Source of the DNA: Nanobdella aerobiophila | GTDB taxonomy: Archaea > Nanobdellota > Nanobdellia > Nanobdellales > Nanobdellaceae | Direction: 5' to 3' | NCBI RefSeq assembly: GCF_023169545.1 | Contig: NZ_AP019769.1 | Location: 390,001 to 422,000, forward strand | Length of the DNA stretch: 32,000 nucleotides | In this document: positions 9,587 through 18,522 of the stretch, piece by piece | How positions within the stretch are numbered: position 1 is the stretch's first letter | Layout: each line of letters opens with the position of its first letter | Translations under genes and position numbers: made by a program | Notes under the pieces: model-generated | Database searches by the model: none | What the model saw: only the letters and a program-made list of their open reading frames with translations | Told to the model about the DNA's origin: nothing

Positions 9587-10441
9587 TTAATTATTTACAA
9601 CATTCAATTCTCCTATTTCCTGTTCAGAAAATACAAAATAATTAAATATTAATTCGCCATACAATATATTTTCATTTCCAGCTTGCACTGGTATTTCTAT
9701 ATAATAATTATTTGAACTTGAACTAAAGCTTTCAGAACCAGTATATGTGTATTGGTTACTATTAATATATAGAGTTAGATCATAATTAAATGAGTAATTT
9801 AATAAATTTACAGAATTCAGGTTACAATCTCCTGTAATATCATTATTGGTTATAGAGAATAGATTATTATTATTCTTTATATAAAAATTAACCACTATAT
9901 AATGACCGGAGCTAGAAGGTATTGAATAAAAACTATATATCATTATAGGACTACCTTTAGAATCTATATTATATTCAAAATTGCATTGTTGATTAGAGAA
10001 ACAACCCGAAAAGAAATAGATTGTTTTATATTGATAACATTCATATAAATTAATAGGTACAGTATTAGAACTTAATAAATTAGGATTAGTTAAGGTTATC
10101 TGCCCATTAACTGGTAAAACAAAATTATAGAAATTTTGTGCGCCTAAATTATTGCTATCCTCACAATTAGAACCAGACACCTGAAATCCATTTGGTAATC
10201 CTGCCAAGCATACAGACCAGTCAAGATTTTTATCTGATGTAACTATATTTATCGGTATATTAAAACCAACATCATTAAAAACCTGTGGACTAAATCCTCC
10301 GCCCAAATTTATATTAAAATAAAATACTGTAGAATTTGTACTATTTGTTTGACTAATACTGTTATTTGTTGTAGTAGGACATATAGAAAAGAAAAACAAT
10401 GCAACAAATAGTATAGGAGCAAATATAATAGCCCTAGCCAT
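9587..10441 (-). CDS. Pilin-like / secreted surface protein (284 aa), unknown family
   Basis: N-terminus MARA|IIFAPILFVALFFFSICPTTTNNS: a short basic leader, then about 18 hydrophobic residues, then a Cys-Pro-Thr-Thr and S/T/N-rich linker. The rest is N/S/Y-rich with several Cys. The start overlaps the upstream gene by 8 nt. Confidence 0.6.
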   Translation of the reverse strand: MARAIIFAPILFVALFFFSICPTTTNNSISQTNSTNSTVFYFNINLGGGFSPQVFNDVGFNIPINIVTSDKNLDWSVCLAGLPNGFQVSGSNCEDSNNLGAQNFYNFVLPVNGQITLTNPNLLSSNTVPINLYECYQYKTIYFFSGCFSNQQCNFEYNIDSKGSPIMIYSFYSIPSSSGHYIVVNFYIKNNNNLFSITNNDITGDCNLNSVNLLNYSFNYDLTLYINSNQYTYTGSESFSSSSNNYYIEIPVQAGNENILYGELIFNYFVFSEQEIGELNVVNN

Positions 10442-11420
10442 TTACATCTTTCAATGGTATATTTATTTGTGTTTGTTCTTGACACGTATAAGTTACGTTC
10501 ATCAATATTGCTGCCTGGACTCCAGTATCTGAATTCAAAGCGGACTGTATTGAAGACCCAAGTTGATTCATATTTATAGTACATTCTATATAAGCATCAG
10601 ATAGATAAATATTACCGGATGGGTTACAGGAGAAACCACTGTTACCATTTTGTATTGTTTGAACATTATTTCCGGATGCTATCTGTAACTCTACATTTGA
10701 TATATCTACTTCTGGCAATTGGTCTTGATTTGTATTTAATCCACTAAAGCATCCAGTATCCACTAGAGAAAATGAAAATGCTGCATAACCTCCACCCATA
10801 GTAATGTAAACATTATTAGAATTTGGAACGATCGGTGAAGCCGTATAAAACACAGGATCTGTCTGATTTAAACCTTCCAAAGAATTTACTAATATCATTG
10901 GTATATATATTTGCGTATACATATTTGAAATATTATAATCTATGGTTATTGGTATACTAGATAGTGTTGATTGTAATCCTGAAGGCAATGATAATGTAGC
11001 TGATTGTATTGGTTGTTGCACTGGCTTTATAGAATTGTCTATATAAAATGCGGGATTCGCATTAAAAGAACCTGAAGATGGTGTTAAATCACCGTATGTT
11101 GATATTTGATAATTTACATTAACTGGTTGGTTGGAGCCCAAATAAAAGCTATTTGAAGTCTGTAAAGAGAAAGAATACTGACTACCAGTAGATGGATTAT
11201 AATACAATACTGAAGGACCTACTATTGACAATTGTACATTACCAGGTACACTAGGTGCCCAAGTAGGTTGGTTAAAACTTGGACTCTGCAGATTTAAAGC
11301 ACCTGAAGAGCTACTTTTAGAACTATTTGAAAAACCAGTACTTGGACATACAGCAAAATTAAATAAGATAACAGATAAACCAACCAATGGAATTAATGAT
11401 AATATTTTTTGTCCCTTCAT
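10434..11420 (-). CDS. Pilin-like / secreted surface protein (328 aa), unknown family
   Basis: N-terminus MKG|QKILSLIPLVGLSVILFNFAVCPSTGFSNSSKSSSS. The mature part is S/N/Q/T/P-rich. I count no Arg and about five Lys. Confidence 0.6.
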   Translation of the reverse strand: MKGQKILSLIPLVGLSVILFNFAVCPSTGFSNSSKSSSSGALNLQSPSFNQPTWAPSVPGNVQLSIVGPSVLYYNPSTGSQYSFSLQTSNSFYLGSNQPVNVNYQISTYGDLTPSSGSFNANPAFYIDNSIKPVQQPIQSATLSLPSGLQSTLSSIPITIDYNISNMYTQIYIPMILVNSLEGLNQTDPVFYTASPIVPNSNNVYITMGGGYAAFSFSLVDTGCFSGLNTNQDQLPEVDISNVELQIASGNNVQTIQNGNSGFSCNPSGNIYLSDAYIECTINMNQLGSSIQSALNSDTGVQAAILMNVTYTCQEQTQINIPLKDVNG

Positions 11421-11459
11421 AAATATTATTTAAAACTTAGTATATATAAATATTTATAC

Positions 11460-12686
11460 CTAGCCAGGATAATAATTTAATGTATTAGAAGCACTCAATA
11501 AATAATTATAACTTAGATCTGATACTACAGAAATTGTTGAATAACCAGAGAATCCAGATGATCCGGATATACATATAGGAATCGCTACAATGAAATTATT
11601 ATTACTATTTTGAAGATATTGTAAGTACTTATTATTTATAATAATATTACAGGAATTTCCACCACAAGTTAATGCATACGAATAATTATTTCCAAAACTA
11701 TAACTATCCGAACAACCAGAATTTGATAAATATTCTAGATTAATTTCATTATTATTGTATATAAACTGTATACTCCAGCTATTAATATTTGCTAGATTTT
11801 GAAGAGAACTAATAGATAATAATATAACATCATAGGATGTATCCTGATTTTGTAATAATACAGGATATCCTGTTGACTTTCCTACTCTAGCAATTTCAAT
11901 ATATGGATAATTGTATAAACTGTTATATAGATCTACATCATAATTATTTTCATTTAGATTTAGATATTGATATATATTCTCATTTTTCTGATTTGCAACG
12001 GCAGCAATAGGTATACTTACTGCCAAGAAATTATATAATGAAGTGGCATTAATATCGTATATTACTGCATTTAAAGTATTATATATATAAAAACCCTGAT
12101 TATTAAGATAAGGACAGGAACTATAATTTAGTTTCGTATTATAGTTACATTCAATAGTATTTATACCATTAAATGATGATAGAGATATGCTTGTGGGACT
12201 TGATGAAGTTTCATTTACAAAATTGCTAAAACAATAATCTAATTCTATCGGATAACTATAAGTACAATTAAATTGAACATTATTATTTAAATTCTGATTT
12301 GATGGTAATGAATACTGAAATATAAATTCCGAAACTGTAGGAGTAGTCATATTATTTTGAGCAACGCCTGCAACACCTGTAATAGGTGATAATTTAATAT
12401 AATAATTATATATTTGCTGCTGCTGAGGTTGACTAGTAAATAATTGAGACTCTGCATATTGATCGGGATTGGATAGTACATTAAGAGCAGTTTGGAAAGA
12501 ACTATAAAAACCAGAATAAACCTTGGATACAGAATTTACTGTATTACCTACACTATTTTCATAGAATGGATTGACAATTCTCGAAAATATATAATTTCTA
12601 ACAATAGGACCATAAAAGAACCATATAAAAACTATACCAACGATAAGAACTATAAATAATATTAAGGCTCCAGTAGCAGATCTCAT
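11460..12686 (-). CDS. Pilin-like surface protein (408 aa), unknown family
   Basis: N-terminus MRSATG|ALILFIVLIVGIVFIWFFYGPIV. The mature part is N/S/Y-rich with many N-x-S/T sequons and several Cys. It starts 1 nt after the upstream gene. Confidence 0.6.
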   Translation of the reverse strand: MRSATGALILFIVLIVGIVFIWFFYGPIVRNYIFSRIVNPFYENSVGNTVNSVSKVYSGFYSSFQTALNVLSNPDQYAESQLFTSQPQQQQIYNYYIKLSPITGVAGVAQNNMTTPTVSEFIFQYSLPSNQNLNNNVQFNCTYSYPIELDYCFSNFVNETSSSPTSISLSSFNGINTIECNYNTKLNYSSCPYLNNQGFYIYNTLNAVIYDINATSLYNFLAVSIPIAAVANQKNENIYQYLNLNENNYDVDLYNSLYNYPYIEIARVGKSTGYPVLLQNQDTSYDVILLSISSLQNLANINSWSIQFIYNNNEINLEYLSNSGCSDSYSFGNNYSYALTCGGNSCNIIINNKYLQYLQNSNNNFIVAIPICISGSSGFSGYSTISVVSDLSYNYLLSASNTLNYYPG

Positions 12687-12687
12687 A

Positions 12688-13737
12688 TTATGATAATTGT
12701 AACATTGAAATATATAAATAGTTATATGGCTTTAATGCAAGTAAGTTCTGGGATAATATACAATCAGATATATTTATGGAATATTCTAATTGAGTAGAAT
12801 TTATATTATAATAGCAATTCTGATTTATTGCTAGTTCTCCAGAACCTTGAGAAACTATAATATCTAATATATTGTTGGATAGATTATTTGGAAATGACAA
12901 ATAGAATACATTACTGCTAGATTCTATATATAAATTTTGGATATCTATTGGATAATTAGAAGTTAATGATATTAGATTATTTCCTATATTTAGATATTGA
13001 TTTAAGGAAATTGTATTAGAGCAAGAATATAAATATATACTATTTCCATTCACAGTTAAGTCTACATCCTGTGGCTGATATGGACAAAAATTATAGTATA
13101 ATACTGAATCTCCACTGACATAATAATAATTAAAATTTAATGAAGAAACTATTAAATAATTTATATCTAGATTATTTAGAGATCCATGAGAATTAAAAAT
13201 AAGACTATCTGGAACAAATTCAATTTTTATATTATTATCACCATTATTTAGATAACTGCCTGGTACAAATATGCTCACTAGATTATTTGTACAAGAGCCA
13301 TATATTTTATAATTATTTATATATATATTAAACTGACCATTATTACAGCTTTCTAAAAAAGAAATATTTATCGCAGAATATTCGGTACTATTATAATAGA
13401 AATATATATTCTTTTCCTCAACACCATAAAATACATTCGTATTAAAGTTTATATTACCTATAGGTATTTGATAATAATTAATATAATTGCCTATAGTATA
13501 ATTATTTGCTATATAATAATAAGAATAACTATTAGATAATTCTATATTCTGGAAAATATATTGGGATGGCGCCGAAGATACATTGGTAGGATATAGTAAT
13601 GGTAAATTAGTACCATTAATTAATGATTGTAATACGATTGGCTTATACTGGGCAGGAAGAATTAACCAATATATGAAAAATATAATACCCAATAATATAA
13701 AGAAAAATCCCACCAATACAGTCTGACCTTTACTCAT
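12688..13737 (-). CDS. Pilin-like surface protein (349 aa), unknown family
   Basis: N-terminus MSKG|QTVLVGFFFILLGIIFFIYWLIL, a KGQ-type class III signal pattern. The mature part is N/Y/S-rich and has three Cys pairs spaced about 20-25 aa apart. Confidence 0.6.
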   Translation of the reverse strand: MSKGQTVLVGFFFILLGIIFFIYWLILPAQYKPIVLQSLINGTNLPLLYPTNVSSAPSQYIFQNIELSNSYSYYYIANNYTIGNYINYYQIPIGNINFNTNVFYGVEEKNIYFYYNSTEYSAINISFLESCNNGQFNIYINNYKIYGSCTNNLVSIFVPGSYLNNGDNNIKIEFVPDSLIFNSHGSLNNLDINYLIVSSLNFNYYYVSGDSVLYYNFCPYQPQDVDLTVNGNSIYLYSCSNTISLNQYLNIGNNLISLTSNYPIDIQNLYIESSSNVFYLSFPNNLSNNILDIIVSQGSGELAINQNCYYNINSTQLEYSINISDCILSQNLLALKPYNYLYISMLQLS

Positions 13738-13761
13738 TAATTCTAGGATATTCTTTAATAT

Positions 13762-14778
13762 TTATATTTTATACCTTAATTTACCAACAATACCAAATTT
13801 ATTTACTAGATCATAATAGACTACGGACTCATTTATAAAGTATATATCAGCATCTATATCATTCAATACATCAAATAATGATAATAATTTATTAAAATTT
13901 TCAGTTTGCTTCAACTTATCAAAATAATCTTCAGAAACTAATATATATTCTATATTATTTTGTAGTGCATAATTATATGTTTCGTCTAAACCGTATGATA
14001 TCAGTTCTTTGGTCATATAGTACAATATATCATTAGTTAATTTATTTAGTTTTAATATTTCTAGCTCTTTTAGAGTTTCTAAATATTCATATCTTTTCGA
14101 AAATTCGTATATACCGCTTGATCCACCTATAGAAACCTTAAAAGCCAATATTTTATCTATTTTTATCTTATCTTTTATATAATTATAAAAATTATCTGGA
14201 TAAAAAGCAGGTCCTACTATACATAATATCCTTGGACTATAATTAGTTAGAATGTCTATATATTTTGAATATACTTTATATAATTTAGAATCAAAATTTG
14301 GGTCGTCTTTTGGTATATTTATATCCGATTCAGATATAATCTTTATATCATCATCTATATAACCTAAAGCAATACTATTATTGTCTAAAGAAATTATATA
14401 TATTACTTCCTTATCTTTTTCAGATTTTTTTAAAAGTTCTAATTCATATTTTTTAAACCCATTATTTTTAACCAACTCAAACTCGGAACCTATCTTTATT
14501 TCAAATGTATGAAAGTGCCCTATTATATCCTCTTCATTAGAAGATATGACCTTACCAGAAGTTCTTATAGAATCCTTATATTCAGAAAATTTTATATCTT
14601 CTACTTGTAATTTTAATTTTATTTTCCTTTTTTCTTTGCTATTATCATATTTTAATACTCTATAATCTTCTCCAGATATGATATCACCTTTATTTATTAT
14701 CTTATATAAAAATAATAAATCCCTCTTAACCTTAACATTTATCTTTATTGTTTTTTTATCTACAGAAATATATTTCAT
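13762..14778 (-). CDS. pelA: Pelota (aDom34) mRNA surveillance / ribosome rescue factor
   Basis: 338 aa. The N-terminal region ...KRDLLFLYKIINKGDIISGEDYRV... matches the Pelota LWHLYN..GD pattern. The C-terminal part has eRF1-like domains with GPAFYPDNFYNYI and SIGGSSGIYE. Confidence 0.8.
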   Translation of the reverse strand: MKYISVDKKTIKINVKVKRDLLFLYKIINKGDIISGEDYRVLKYDNSKEKRKIKLKLQVEDIKFSEYKDSIRTSGKVISSNEEDIIGHFHTFEIKIGSEFELVKNNGFKKYELELLKKSEKDKEVIYIISLDNNSIALGYIDDDIKIISESDINIPKDDPNFDSKLYKVYSKYIDILTNYSPRILCIVGPAFYPDNFYNYIKDKIKIDKILAFKVSIGGSSGIYEFSKRYEYLETLKELEILKLNKLTNDILYYMTKELISYGLDETYNYALQNNIEYILVSEDYFDKLKQTENFNKLLSLFDVLNDIDADIYFINESVVYYDLVNKFGIVGKLRYKI

Positions 14779-15767
14779 AATATAGATAGTAATAAAGCTA
14801 GAAAAATTGGCGGGATAAATGGAGCACCTTCCATTACTTTTAATTCTATATTATTATATTTCGACAACTCTTTCAATATATTGATTTCTTCCAATGAAAG
14901 ACCTTGATTTCCACTAAATAACCTATTTTGGGATATATTATATATTATTAGTATTATAAAAAAAGAAATTGTTGATATATAAATATTAAATATATATAGA
15001 ATCATTGGAACCAGGGATAGAATTATTATTAATATAGAGCTAATATACTTATTTTTATCCTTAAAAGATAATATATAATTATCTCCTTCTTTTCTAACAT
15101 TAAAATATCTATTTACCTTACTATATACGCTATCTGGAATATTAGAAATAATTATATTATCATCAATCCAATCACCTTCTACAAGTTTATCAACAGTTCT
15201 TGTATATATCAATCTACTTCTTAGATCTTTCTCAAATATTCTAAATATAAAGTAAGATATATAGAGTAATATCATTGAATATATAATATAATATATTTGA
15301 AAATTATATATGAATAAATATATTATATAAATAGCTACCAACAATAATACTATATTTAGCAAAGATAAAGAGAAATATTTCTTGTTTTTATTATAATAAA
15401 CTTTTAAACCTTCGATATTGTGAAATATAAAGGCGAATAACACTAAATAAAATATAAATGATATGATATTATTCAAATTAATAAATGAAAACAATATAGA
15501 AATGCCAAAAAATATGTATAAATCTCCAATAGCTAACAACTTAAATACATATAATAAAGTAAACAATAATAAGACTAAATATGATATTATAATATATATT
15601 GAAAATATATTATAAAAGAATATTATATATGAAAATGAGAATAAATTAAATATGAAAAATATATATAATATTATATCATCTACAGCTTTATATCTAATAT
15701 CCTGATATGTAGAATAAAATAATAATAAGAAGTCAACAATATATATAGTATACAGATATTCATACAT
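14775..15767 (-). CDS. Type IV prepilin/preflagellin peptidase, A24 family (FlaK/PibD/EppA-like)
   Basis: Polytopic membrane protein. Counting from the internal Met (MYEYLYTIYIV...), the motifs YQDIRYKAVDD and LLAIGDLY place Asp residues at positions 23 and 82. These are close to the catalytic D23/D80 of Sulfolobus PibD. A soluble insert lies between TM blocks as in FlaK, and the C-terminus has GAPFIPPIFLAL. The listed ORF start (15821, GTG) is probably an artefactual extension. Confidence 0.6.
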   Translation of the reverse strand: MYEYLYTIYIVDFLLLFYSTYQDIRYKAVDDIILYIFFIFNLFSFSYIIFFYNIFSIYIIISYLVLLLFTLLYVFKLLAIGDLYIFFGISILFSFINLNNIISFIFYLVLFAFIFHNIEGLKVYYNKNKKYFSLSLLNIVLLLVAIYIIYLFIYNFQIYYIIYSMILLYISYFIFRIFEKDLRSRLIYTRTVDKLVEGDWIDDNIIISNIPDSVYSKVNRYFNVRKEGDNYILSFKDKNKYISSILIIILSLVPMILYIFNIYISTISFFIILIIYNISQNRLFSGNQGLSLEEINILKELSKYNNIELKVMEGAPFIPPIFLALLLSIL

Positions 15768-15856: not shown

Positions 15857-16528
15857 CTACTCCGTCCTTACTAACGGAGCATCTCGCGATGGAGATTTCC
15901 TGCTTCTTCCAGGAAACTTACTATACACACTCTCAGAGAAGAGTATGTATAGCAGAGGTTCCCTGTCCACAGGCTCTAAGGGCAGTCCCGACCCCGAACG
16001 AAGAATATTTAGAGATGCATTATAATCACGATCTACAGTCCAACCGCATTTAGAGCAAGTGAAGGTACGATCAGAAAGAGTTAGATCTTTTTTCACATAT
16101 CCACATTTAGCACATGTTCTTGAAGTATTTCTAGGATCTACTTTCACTACCCTCCTACCAGCTCTTTCAGCCTTATAGGAGAGGTAGCTTATGAACTTGG
16201 AGAAATTAGAGTGAAGAGTGTGTTTTTTCAAAGTTTTACTTGTACTATTCTCAACGATTTTCTTCACATCAAGGTCTTCCACGTATATTTCATCATACTG
16301 TTCAACAAGCCACGAAGTCACCTTATGAATATAATCACTCATCAAGTCTTTCAACATGTTTTGAGTGTCCTTAGGTGTTATCTTTTTCCCTTCTTTCCCT
16401 GAGTTATTCACTATGTCTAGTAATGCGTTGTATACTTTAGCTTCAATTTGCATAACCTTGAGCAATCTTTCCTCTACTTTTTTCGTTGGATAAATTCTGT
16501 ACTTGAACGAGAGTTGAATTTTATCACT
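15857..16528 (-). pseudogene. tnpB: TnpB (IS200/IS605 OrfB) relic with internal deletion and lost start codon
   Basis: The C-terminal half is intact: DYIHKVTSWLVEQYDEIYVEDLDV (RuvC-II Glu), the zinc finger TSRTCAKCGY...FTCSKCGW, and DRDYNASLNIL (RuvC-III Asp). The same frame, open up to 16528, encodes QLSFKYRIYPTKKVEERLLKV..VYNALLD, the typical TnpB N-terminus. About 170-200 aa in between are missing, including the RuvC-I GIDLG region. No ATG/GTG/TTG precedes FKYRIYP, and an in-frame TAG lies at 16529-16531. Confidence 0.8.
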
Positions 16529-16645
16529 CTACTCCTTGGCTCTCCACATATTCTATAATAATATTTGCCTTCTAATCTATAAAAATATTTCTATAAGGGG
16601 ACTATCCATTCCCCTGACAGAAGGGGCTTCTGCCTCCTAACCCCC
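15857..16645 (-). mobile_element. Degenerate IS200/IS605-family (IS1341-like, tnpB-only) element; boundaries approximate
   Basis: The block is visibly G+C-richer than the surrounding very A+T-rich DNA. It carries the tnpB relic and has G+C-rich hairpins at both ends (16597-16614 and 16618-16632; 15860-15879). Confidence 0.65.
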
Positions 16646-16679
16646 AAAAGTTAAAAATTCTAAAAATTCCTATCTATAT

Positions 16680-17027: not shown

Positions 17028-18176
17028 TTATTCTTCTAGCTTTATATTTTTCATATATAATATTCTCTTTATATTATCAATATCATGCTCTAATAGTTTT
17101 ATCTTCTCTATCTCAGATGTTATATACTCAAAATTAGTAATATCAATCACATTTTCTATTTTTTGCAACTTACTTGATATCTTATTATAATCATCTACAA
17201 TACTATCTGTTATATCTTTAAAATCGGTTATCTCATATTTTATACTTTCTATATCTCTTTTTAATAAGTTTATTATATTTTCTAAATCATCTATCTTATG
17301 GTTAATAGTAGAAATTTTTTCCAAATCACTTGATTTAGTCCTCATCTCATTTACTATATTCTGTAAATCATTAAATAATCCATATATGTTATTTAATTTA
17401 TTTTCAAAATCTATATATTTTGAATAAAGGTTTTTAAATGATACAATTTCTTTTATATTTTTAATATCTTCATTAGATATACTTTTTAAATAAGAAAAAT
17501 CATTTATATTCTTATCTATATACTCTTTTATATTCTTATTATCCGATATTAACTTATCTATATCTTTCTTCAAATTATATATATCTTTATTTTTTAGGTT
17601 CTCTAATTCTTCCGTTATCTTATTATACAGAACAATATCTTCCAATATCTTATTTATATTGTTTTCTAAGGTTTTAGTTAATTTATTTAAATCATCTTTT
17701 ATCTTAATAAAATCTTTTTTATCTGTATAGTTATCCTCAATATTTTTTATTTTTAGATAAAATTCCTTTATATTATCTTGTAGATCCTTTAATATTTTAT
17801 TATTATCGCTATATCTAGATATTGAATTATTTATATCAATTATTTCACTCTCTAACTTATTCAATTTAGACCTAAGATCTATAATAGAAGTATAATCCAC
17901 AAAATTCTTTTGATTATTCTCCAAAACTTCTAATTTTATAGATATGTCCTGAAGATCTTTTATTTTATTATATAAATCCTCATTTATATATTTTTTATAG
18001 TCTTCTACGATTTTATTTAATTTATCAACTCTATCTTTTATATCATCTATATCTTTATAATATTCTGATCTTTCGAGATAATAACTTAACCTCTTATTTA
18101 ATTCTATAAATTTTTCATTGAGTTTTTTCGTATATAAATAAAACTCATTTACTATATCAAAATCCTTACTATTCAT
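17028..18176 (-). CDS. Long coiled-coil protein (382 aa), function unknown
   Basis: K/E/D/N/I-rich heptad-like sequence throughout. No TM segment and no NTPase motif. Confidence 0.6.
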   Translation of the reverse strand: MNSKDFDIVNEFYLYTKKLNEKFIELNKRLSYYLERSEYYKDIDDIKDRVDKLNKIVEDYKKYINEDLYNKIKDLQDISIKLEVLENNQKNFVDYTSIIDLRSKLNKLESEIIDINNSISRYSDNNKILKDLQDNIKEFYLKIKNIEDNYTDKKDFIKIKDDLNKLTKTLENNINKILEDIVLYNKITEELENLKNKDIYNLKKDIDKLISDNKNIKEYIDKNINDFSYLKSISNEDIKNIKEIVSFKNLYSKYIDFENKLNNIYGLFNDLQNIVNEMRTKSSDLEKISTINHKIDDLENIINLLKRDIESIKYEITDFKDITDSIVDDYNKISSKLQKIENVIDITNFEYITSEIEKIKLLEHDIDNIKRILYMKNIKLEE

Positions 18177-18207
18177 AAATATATTTTCTATACAAAATTT
18201 ATTAAAT

Positions 18208-18522
18208 TTATTTGATGTTAGATTTTTTCAAGATATCCAGATCCTTTTTTATAGATTCCACTTGAAACTCTAGAGCAAATATTTTCTTTTTTATTATATC
18301 TATATCATTAAATCTTCTATTTATGTTTAATAACAGGGTATTTATATTATTTAATAAATTATTATAATCCTCTTTATTATCAAAGATTTTATTTTTTAAT
18401 CTATTATATTTATCTAATATATTATTATTCATGTTTTTGTATTTTTCTAATTCTTCATTCAGAGTTTTTATCTTATTTTCTAGTTCATTAATTATATTCT
18501 CATATTCCTGAATATCATCCAT
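18208..18522 (-). CDS. Small coiled-coil protein (104 aa), function unknown
   Basis: Heptad-like sequence (NELENKIKTLNEELEKYKNM...). The start overlaps the polB stop by 8 nt. Confidence 0.55.
   Translation of the reverse strand: MDDIQEYENIINELENKIKTLNEELEKYKNMNNNILDKYNRLKNKIFDNKEDYNNLLNNINTLLLNINRRFNDIDIIKKKIFALEFQVESIKKDLDILKKSNIK

Follow-up and report, generated by a model that had tools for sequence, protein, structure and literature searches.

We analysed a 32,000-nucleotide stretch (hereafter the window) of the 668,961-bp genome of Nanobdella aerobiophila MJ1, a cultivated thermoacidophilic nanoarchaeal ectosymbiont whose host is Metallosphaera sedula. The window holds four consecutive genes, MJ1_0469, MJ1_0468, MJ1_0467, and MJ1_0466, designated A, B, C, and D in transcription order, which an earlier note had taken for pilin-like class III signal substrates on the strength of their N-termini and of an A24 prepilin peptidase gene nearby. 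Comparison with orthologues leads to a different view. The four genes probably form a Sec-exported surface-protein operon of thermoacidophilic Nanobdellales, in which A and B are anchored in the membrane and C and D are lipoproteins, and which does not use the type IV pilus route.

Export signals of A to D across orthologues

The four open reading frames (ORFs) match MJ1_0469 to MJ1_0466 exactly, each annotated 'hypothetical'. All lie on the minus strand, with 1 nt between A and B and an 8-nt overlap between C and D; positions, N-termini, and spacing are as the earlier note had described them (Table 1). Among the 31 proteins of the window, only these four carry an N-terminal hydrophobic 19-mer, with a mean Kyte-Doolittle hydropathy of 2.4 to 3.0 against at most 1.2 in the other 27. 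Their content of K+R+D+E is 6 to 8%, compared with 14% in the membrane peptidase and 24 to 38% in the remaining window proteins, and their content of N+S+T+Q+Y is 44 to 48%, compared with 15 to 31% in the others. Each also has four to eight N-glycosylation sequons and several Cys. This pattern is not attributable to chance, and such a composition would fit proteins exposed to a medium of pH 2.5. No Pfam or NCBIfam family scores above threshold on any of the four, in agreement with the earlier note, which had recognised no domain; the matches below threshold (HRG, carbohydrate-binding module [CBM]-like, GBD_T9SS_assoc) are noise. The four families are mutually unrelated. hhalign joins only C and D, through their shared signal peptide, and raw BLAST matches among the four were dismissed as composition-driven.

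As positive controls for a class III signal, we used the archaellin MJ1_0453 and its neighbour MJ1_0452, from an MJ1 Logan contig that runs past the window edge, together with counterparts from strain YN1 and metagenomic relatives. Every archaellin N-terminus of the lineage that was examined (at least 10 sequences, of three paralogous types) has [KR][GA]|Q, beginning with MKG|Q or, in the third type, with MVRA|Q. Judged by these sequences, the genuine class III site of the lineage is a strictly conserved [KR][GA]|Q. Among orthologues of A to D, [KR][GA] precedes the hydrophobic helix in 2 of 10 for A, 2 of 10 for B, about 4 to 6 of 16 for C, and 2 of 8 for D. A short leader with the helix at the extreme N-terminus is found for A, C, and D and not for B, where 205 residues come first in contig L007 and 85 in the YN1 remnant. 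Of the class III pattern that the earlier note read in the MJ1 proteins, the homologues keep the hydrophobic N-terminus and lack the cleavage motif.

Profile and fold comparisons agree with these counts. The archaellin profile of the lineage aligns to A, B, and C by hhalign with a probability of at most 1%. Neither PF04021 (DUF361), which the earlier note had named for comparison, nor PF01917 gives a Pfam match to A to D at E ≤1. Structure prediction and Foldseek, which the note had also proposed, returned β-sandwich and jelly-roll matches for the two proteins modelled (A and B), and the search of these low-confidence models against the PDB gave no pilin or archaellin match.

In C and D, the starts vary and a Cys is constant. 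It closes the hydrophobic stretch in 16 of 16 full-length C members and in all eight D orthologues, and in both families a Ser/Thr/Gly/Asn-rich linker comes next. The motifs at this Cys include LAGC, LLGC, LSGC, AAGC, FSAC, FTAC, and FQAC in C and LAGC, FLGC, AAGC, LMGC, and FSSC in D, with FAVC and FSIC, respectively, in MJ1. Cys25 is one of only 11 invariant columns in the C alignment. Canonical lipoboxes (LAGC, LLGC, LSGC, AAGC, and, in C, FSAC) are carried by remote members, among which LMGC also occurs. Against the canonical [LVI][ASTVI][GAS]C, the MJ1 sites FAV|C and FSI|C are atypical at positions -3 and -1. The conserved lipobox Cys predicts that C and D are lipoprotein-type, and it is the practice of class III substrate screens to leave out lipobox-bearing signals (bioRxiv 10.64898/2026.04.22.720090). 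Four further Cys are invariant or nearly so in the C ectodomain and six further Cys are invariant in that of D, which suggests disulfide-stabilised domains. The C ectodomain is predicted to be β-rich, and D has a weak galactose-binding-domain-like match (PF23759, E=0.0075).

The two proteins resemble the Sec-type lipobox lipoproteins of Archaea, whose lipidation depends on AliA/AliB in Haloferax volcanii, in their short basic start, hydrophobic stretch, [L/F][A/S/T][G/A/S]C-type lipobox, and Ser/Thr-rich linker. They differ in having ectodomains that belong to no described family and, in their acidophilic members, a degenerate pre-Cys position (V, I, T). Lipoproteins are predicted to be prevalent in DPANN archaea, which also possess, though with gaps, AliA, the candidate enzyme for their lipidation (PMC12462473). 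As a separate observation, the C and D signal peptides of contig L006 (12314-12390 and 13287-13360) are near-identical (…LPIFLLGTTLFYFSSC) and the mature proteins unrelated, suggesting gene conversion or a shared signal constraint.

A orthologues, found at the same position and 31 to 58% identical, begin with MSKGQ, MKGQ, MKSQ, MRTQ, MKKLQ (twice), MKRRYQ (twice), MKKRYQ, or MRYQ. All 10 have [KR]-x-Q, with G, S, T, L, or Y at x; G stands there in only two and Y, L, or T in seven. Alteration of the -1 Gly leads to no or poor cleavage in the archaeal systems tested (PMC10117864), and the Y, L, or T that stands before Q in most A orthologues argues against processing. The N-terminal helix is better conserved than the ectodomain (43 to 65% versus 31 to 55%), which suggests a specific helix–helix partner. 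By its sequence features, the A N-terminus is most likely an uncleaved signal anchor: the 23 residues of its helix exceed what a cleavable Sec hydrophobic region would have, the helix lacks a small-x-small site behind it, and Y, L, or T precedes the conserved Q in seven of 10 orthologues. A and B were also considered as secretory proteins cleaved by signal peptidase I, and this was rejected, as their hydrophobic segments span 20 to 23 residues with no small-x-small site downstream.

We predict that A is an N-in/C-out single-pass membrane protein with a β-rich ectodomain, which in the model is probably a tandem jelly-roll of lectin- or CBM-like type. The AlphaFold2 (AF2) model, built on a shallow alignment (predicted local distance difference test [pLDDT] 57), has a helix at residues 3 to 41 with a break at Pro28, a low-confidence linker of about 20 residues, and two β domains. 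Its Foldseek matches are CBM35 and galactose-binding-like jelly rolls (e.g., 4qb2: probability 0.99, target template modelling score [TM-score] 0.41). Comparison with viral models (BFVD) gave only weak matches of lectin, PA14, and discoidin type, and Pfam a weak CBM-like match (E=0.063). The jelly-roll matches are in keeping with this weak Pfam match and with the galactose-binding-domain-like one of D. Searches of PDB sequences with the family profiles of A and C found nothing.

B orthologues have TG|A, SG|A, SG|T, KG|I, KG|G, or DGR|V at the corresponding point, and one (P0010) has no leader. Since the hydrophobic segment is preceded by 0 residues in P0010, 85 in YN1, and 205 in L007, it is best read as a membrane anchor. 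The AF2 model, again from a shallow alignment (pLDDT 56, predicted TM-score 0.52), would give B a membrane helix, a helical juxtamembrane stalk that ends in a conserved NPxxY, and a β-sandwich ectodomain, for which Foldseek returns only generic adhesin or type II cohesin-like β-sandwiches at TM-scores below 0.2. For both A and B, Foldseek matches indicate no more than the type of fold, because the models are of low confidence. In the distant orthologue on L007 (836-2902, 688 residues), a highly charged, coiled-coil-like cytoplasmic N-terminal domain of about 205 residues and two to three membrane segments come before the conserved ectodomain, which hints at a link from the surface module to something intracellular.

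The class III signal, and with it the pilin-like label, is therefore not borne out: the motif is not kept in orthologues, C and D have a lipobox, B orthologues bear N-terminal extensions, and neither the archaellin profile nor the folds point to pilins. A pilin reading is not supported for B, C, and D and is unlikely for A.

Table 1. Features of the A to D locus and its surroundings, numbered from the first letter of the window (aa, amino acids)
Feature	Positions	Strand	Description
Gene A, MJ1_0469	12688..13737	-	349-aa ORF
A N-terminus	13654..13737	-	Leader MSKGQ, then 23-residue hydrophobic helix TVLVGFFFILLGIIFFIYWLILP
Gene B, MJ1_0468	11460..12686	-	408-aa ORF
B N-terminal module, residues 1-80	12447..12686	-	Leader MRSATG, helix ALILFIVLIVGIVFIWFFYG, helical stretch up to NPDQY
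Gene C, MJ1_0467	10434..11420	-	328-aa ORF
C predicted signal peptide (residues 1-24) and lipobox Cys25 (FAV|C)	11346..11420	-	Ser/Gly-rich linker PSTGFSNSSKSSSSG downstream
Gene D, MJ1_0466	9587..10441	-	284-aa ORF
D predicted signal peptide (residues 1-20) and lipobox Cys21 (FSI|C)	10379..10441	-	Thr/Asn/Ser-rich linker PTTTNNSISQTNSTNST downstream
pelota, MJ1_0470	13762..14778	-	TIGR00111, 3.6e-29; housekeeping gene between the peptidase gene and A
Divergent A24 (GxGD-type) aspartyl peptidase, MJ1_0471	14775..15767	-	330 aa from ATG at 15767
Truncated TnpB gene	15857..16660	-	C-terminal RuvC and zinc-ribbon part only (NF040570, 8e-41)
Two adjacent long coiled-coil proteins	17028..18522	-	382 and 104 aa, 37 to 38% charged, no family assignment

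Conservation and modular loss of the cluster

Homologues of A to D are few and confined to hot-spring Nanobdellales. We found four clusters of A homologues, YN1_0350 among them, two homologues of B, and 16 cluster representatives of C, from an exhaustive HMMER scan of 1.84 billion proteins. A word-index search gave no homologue of D, so its orthologues were recovered by position (synteny). A scan of genome contigs with the B profile added nothing to the metagenome-assembled genome (MAG) already in hand.

At least five related genomes keep the gene order A24 peptidase–pelota–A–B–C–D–eIF2α. Continued by Nop10 and PAC2, this arrangement, or the portion of it that a contig covers, is seen in a 'Ca. 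Nanopusillus sp.' MAG (L001/L003), JGI contigs L006 and L008, ENA contig L009, and Logan contig L018, and partly in L007, L017, and L019. The tight A to D block is clearly one unit. The earlier note's claim of a dedicated cluster holds in this sense, as the genes encode tightly packed, exported envelope proteins and are conserved across relatives. Collinearity extends over more than 20 kb, across housekeeping genes that include RtcB, PolB, GINS, a helicase, TmcA, SufS, and SufBD. Because the whole region is collinear and interleaved with housekeeping genes (RtcB, PolB, pelota, eIF2α, Nop10, PAC2, GINS, and others), the adjacency of the peptidase gene is weak evidence that it and the cluster are functionally connected. 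Neither a FlaI/PilB-like nor a FlaJ/PilC-like gene was found within the window, as the note had stated. The note would also have counted against itself a genome devoid of type IV assembly ATPases and platform proteins; that objection does not arise, as ArlHIJ are reported for this genome (bioRxiv 10.1101/2023.10.27.564410).

Within this conserved setting, members of the cluster have been lost in a lineage-specific manner. Strain YN1 retains A and a 168-residue remnant of B, both C and D being gone, and L010 retains A, an 89-residue remnant of B, and C, with D gone. L006 has the full set although it is close to YN1 (PolB 92% identical). A is the sole member of the four retained at every related locus that covers its position. 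The YN1 and L010 remnants share one N-terminal module of B, consisting of the membrane helix and about 55 residues up to the conserved NPxxY. YN1 builds the attachment organelle (PMC11420986) with no C, no D, and only a part of B, so the missing portions are not needed for that structure. These shortened B genes (mini-B; L004 11046-11552 in YN1 and L010 9673-9942) represent independent losses of the B ectodomain in two lineages, and the YN1 mini-B bears an added 85-residue, Asn/Tyr-rich N-terminal extension.

A full-text literature search with the locus tags MJ1_0466 to MJ1_0469 found no paper. Kato et al. surveyed the surface proteins of MJ1, describing the S-layer candidate MJ1_0160, pectin-lyase-like proteins, the lectin-like MJ1_0179, and ArlB-like proteins, and the text of that survey does not mention MJ1_0466 to MJ1_0469 (bioRxiv 10.1101/2023.10.27.564410). 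The cluster is undescribed yet conventional, a surface-protein operon of orphan families. Close parallels in kind include lectin-like DPANN surface proteins, such as MJ1_0179 of N. aerobiophila and LC1Nh_0399-0401 of Nanohalobium constans, which have been proposed for host recognition (bioRxiv 10.1101/2023.10.27.564410) and which likewise combine an N-terminal membrane helix with a β-sandwich or jelly-roll ectodomain. They differ in that no sequence relationship to A to D is detectable, that the ectodomain fold of A comes from a low-confidence model, and that A to D form a fixed four-gene operon.

The A24 peptidase, the archaellins, and other neighbours

The peptidase gene that the earlier note placed next to the cluster, with pelota between, is real though divergent. 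GenBank labels MJ1_0471 a 'subfamily A24A unassigned peptidase', and its gene overlaps pelota by 4 nt in MJ1, an overlap present in every genome. No Pfam or NCBIfam score of the family exceeds its curated threshold. Below threshold, four of five orthologues match PF01478 and three of five match PF06819, the archaeal A24 C-terminal domain; the best PF01478 E value is 8e-4, with MJ1_0471 itself at 17.5 bits against a cut-off of 26.5, and the other scores are 1.8e-3 for PF06819 and 0.028 for NF053826. Invariant in the five orthologues are Asp23 (in QDIRYKAVDD), AIGD at residues 79 to 82, EGDWI, and a C-terminal EGxPFxP. Asp23 and AIGD correspond to both catalytic motifs of PibD, ArlK, and PilD (PMC10117864), the first position of the GxGD motif being Ala rather than Gly in MJ1_0471. 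A profile search of PDB sequences with the peptidase recovered no A24 structure, FlaK included.

On these sequence features, we accept MJ1_0471 as a real, albeit very divergent, A24 class III signal peptidase, and it is most likely the archaellin-processing enzyme, lying beside A to D. Like the PibD/ArlK/EppA peptidases, it has several membrane helices and both catalytic motifs (an Asp in helix 1, and xxGD), and it gives weak matches to PF01478 and PF06819. It differs from them in its sub-threshold scores, in having AIGD instead of GxGD, in a conserved EGDWI insert, and in sharing an operon with pelota. The insert, about 60 residues (…LVEGDWIE…), is soluble, conserved in the family, and placed between membrane segments, and the L008 orthologue lacks two membrane segments.

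Two observations concern the archaellins themselves. All archaellin-type proteins of the lineage (L012 15396-16605; L015 3001-6251) have a leader of 3 to 4 residues and Gln at +1, a site closer to EppA-type pilins than to typical archaellins. The major archaellin (L012 15396-15986, which is MJ1_0453 and lies about 3.4 kb past the left edge of the window; L014 to L016 3001-3594) is about 87 to 90% identical among N. aerobiophila, YN1 (YN1_0220), and several metagenomic relatives. In contrast, the 16S rRNA of the two cultivated strains is 86.5% identical and neighbouring proteins are 50 to 88% identical, which implies either unusually strong constraint on the archaellin or recent gene exchange.

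Upstream of the peptidase gene, the TnpB fragment has a GC content of 0.39 to 0.40, that of every other gene being 0.17 to 0.33, and it is absent from the corresponding position in YN1, L006, L008, and L010. It has the appearance of foreign DNA, possibly from the host (Sulfolobales), that entered recently between MJ1_0473 and the peptidase gene. The pair of coiled-coil proteins sits between PolB and the peptidase region, a position kept in YN1, L006, and L010.

Alternative readings and biological meaning

If A to D are Sec-exported surface proteins, the invariant Cys of C and D would receive a lipid and stand first in the mature protein, and a Ser/Thr/Asn/Gly-rich spacer, probably glycosylated, would lift a disulfide-rich β domain off the membrane. 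A and B would be held by uncleaved N-terminal helices, N-in and C-out, with A exposing lectin-like jelly-roll domains and B a helical stalk and β-sandwich. The four would probably cooperate as a membrane-tethered complex for external glycans or proteins, for example of the host or of the cell's own S-layer. A and the N-terminal module of B would be its core, and the B ectodomain, C, and D dispensable accessories. An adhesive or glycan-binding role for the cluster is plausible. Several points weigh against this interpretation. In MJ1, the leaders of A (MSKG|Q) and C (MKG|Q) are exact copies of the one on the strain's archaellins, and the two proteins might be cleaved in this strain. The invariant [KR]-x-Q of A and its N-terminal helix, the best-conserved part of the protein, are pilin-like features. 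Acidophilic members of C and D have an unusual residue (V, I, or T) just before the lipobox Cys, and the structure models for A and B are poor (pLDDT 56 to 57).

The leaders of A and C are also an argument for the proposal that all four are class III, pilin-like substrates, which we nevertheless rate as highly improbable. Like archaellins, type IV pilins, and the sugar-binding proteins of the Sulfolobus bindosome, A to D of MJ1 start with a basic leader of only a few residues and continue with a hydrophobic helix, an A24 gene lies close by, and their size is in the range of archaellins and binding proteins; ArlHIJ are present in the genome, and PibD-type enzymes tolerate 3-residue leaders (PMC10117864). 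Orthologue comparison largely refutes the proposal, as the motif is unconserved in every one of the four families, C and D have their invariant lipobox Cys (a feature that class III screens set aside), B orthologues carry long cytoplasmic extensions, no similarity to PF01917, PF04021, or any pilin or archaellin appears by profile or fold, and the cluster has no assembly ATPase or platform gene. It is unlikely that A alone is a non-canonical class III substrate, cut by the A24 peptidase after [KR]-x to leave an N-terminal Gln, with B, C, and D as accessory envelope proteins. Assembled by ArlI/ArlJ, A might then insert into or decorate a type IV-like filament, for which there are two candidates, a 'rough' appendage 15 nm wide and the thorns of the archaella. 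Both are features of MJ1 filaments that await explanation (PMC11104419). The Gln that all 10 A orthologues share is the +1 residue of every archaellin of the lineage, the exact MKG|Q or SKG|Q site occurs in MJ1 and L018, the helix is more conserved than the ectodomain, and the specificity of so divergent a peptidase, whose gene lies two upstream in all relatives, may differ. Given the invariant motif, the MKG|Q-like leaders, and the neighbouring enzyme, some form of non-canonical cleavage of A keeps a small probability. What tells against it is the residue before Q in seven of 10 orthologues, together with the effect of -1 Gly changes in the archaeal systems tested (PMC10117864). Moreover, YN1 possesses the same peptidase, and there the archaellin retains MKG|Q and A starts with MKKRY|Q. 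A has no profile similarity to archaellins, and the modelled Pro28 break and the linker of about 20 residues before the β domains would be unlike pilins. The fuller version, in which a relaxed peptidase recognises [KR]-x|Q rather than [KR]-G|x throughout the A family and A forms or decorates with mini-B a surface filament not identified before in these ectosymbionts, such as the rough appendage or the archaellum thorns, the C and D lipoproteins serving as accessories, is distinctly unlikely; if true, type IV filament subunits that are large and bear lectin domains would constitute a new class.

Two further readings assign the cluster to known structures of the cell. It is quite improbable that A to D are the missing accessory parts of the archaellum, as analogues of the ArlF/ArlG stator or of the unusual 'corrugated' proximal segment; in that case they would be membrane-anchored β-sandwich proteins tying the motor to the S-layer. 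ArlF and ArlG are N-terminally anchored β-sandwich proteins, which counts for this idea, as does the location of the archaellin genes MJ1_0452 and MJ1_0453, some 13 kb away from the cluster. The Arl annotation of MJ1 is limited to ArlBHIJ (bioRxiv 10.1101/2023.10.27.564410), and free cells of MJ1, with the full cluster, swim (PMC11104419), whereas swimming was not seen in YN1, without B, C, and D (PMC11420986). Yet this motility contrast is a single anecdotal comparison and YN1 still makes archaellum-like filaments, no Arl protein resembles A to D by sequence or by profile, and A and B are two to three times the size of ArlF/ArlG. We likewise give little credence to the idea that A to D belong to the attachment organelle of Nanobdellales (its cone or portal), whether as building blocks or for recognition. 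Their being lineage-specific, exported, and lectin-like would suit that role, and components of the organelle are still to be identified (PMC11104419, PMC11420986). However, YN1 has lost C, D, and most of B and still builds the organelle (PMC11420986), and L010 lacks D and most of B, so that at most A and mini-B could be required. The Sec-exported surface operon remains the reading that we consider probable.

This result bears on how N. aerobiophila, one of the few cultivated DPANN ectosymbionts, is studied, as the molecules behind its recognition of the host, its second type of filament, and its attachment organelle await identification. Four tempting 'pilin' candidates are struck from the list. 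In their place stands a conserved operon of two predicted membrane-anchored and two lipoprotein-type proteins that published surveys have not discussed. The comparison also holds a warning for those who scan genomes: Sec, lipoprotein, signal-anchor, and class III signals all have a short basic leader with a hydrophobic stretch behind it, and only conservation among orthologues separates them. As the archaellins are strictly [KR][GA]|Q, they provide a lineage-specific rule for calling class III substrates. Finally, YN1, which has naturally lost B, C, and D, offers a ready comparison for the roles of the accessory proteins.

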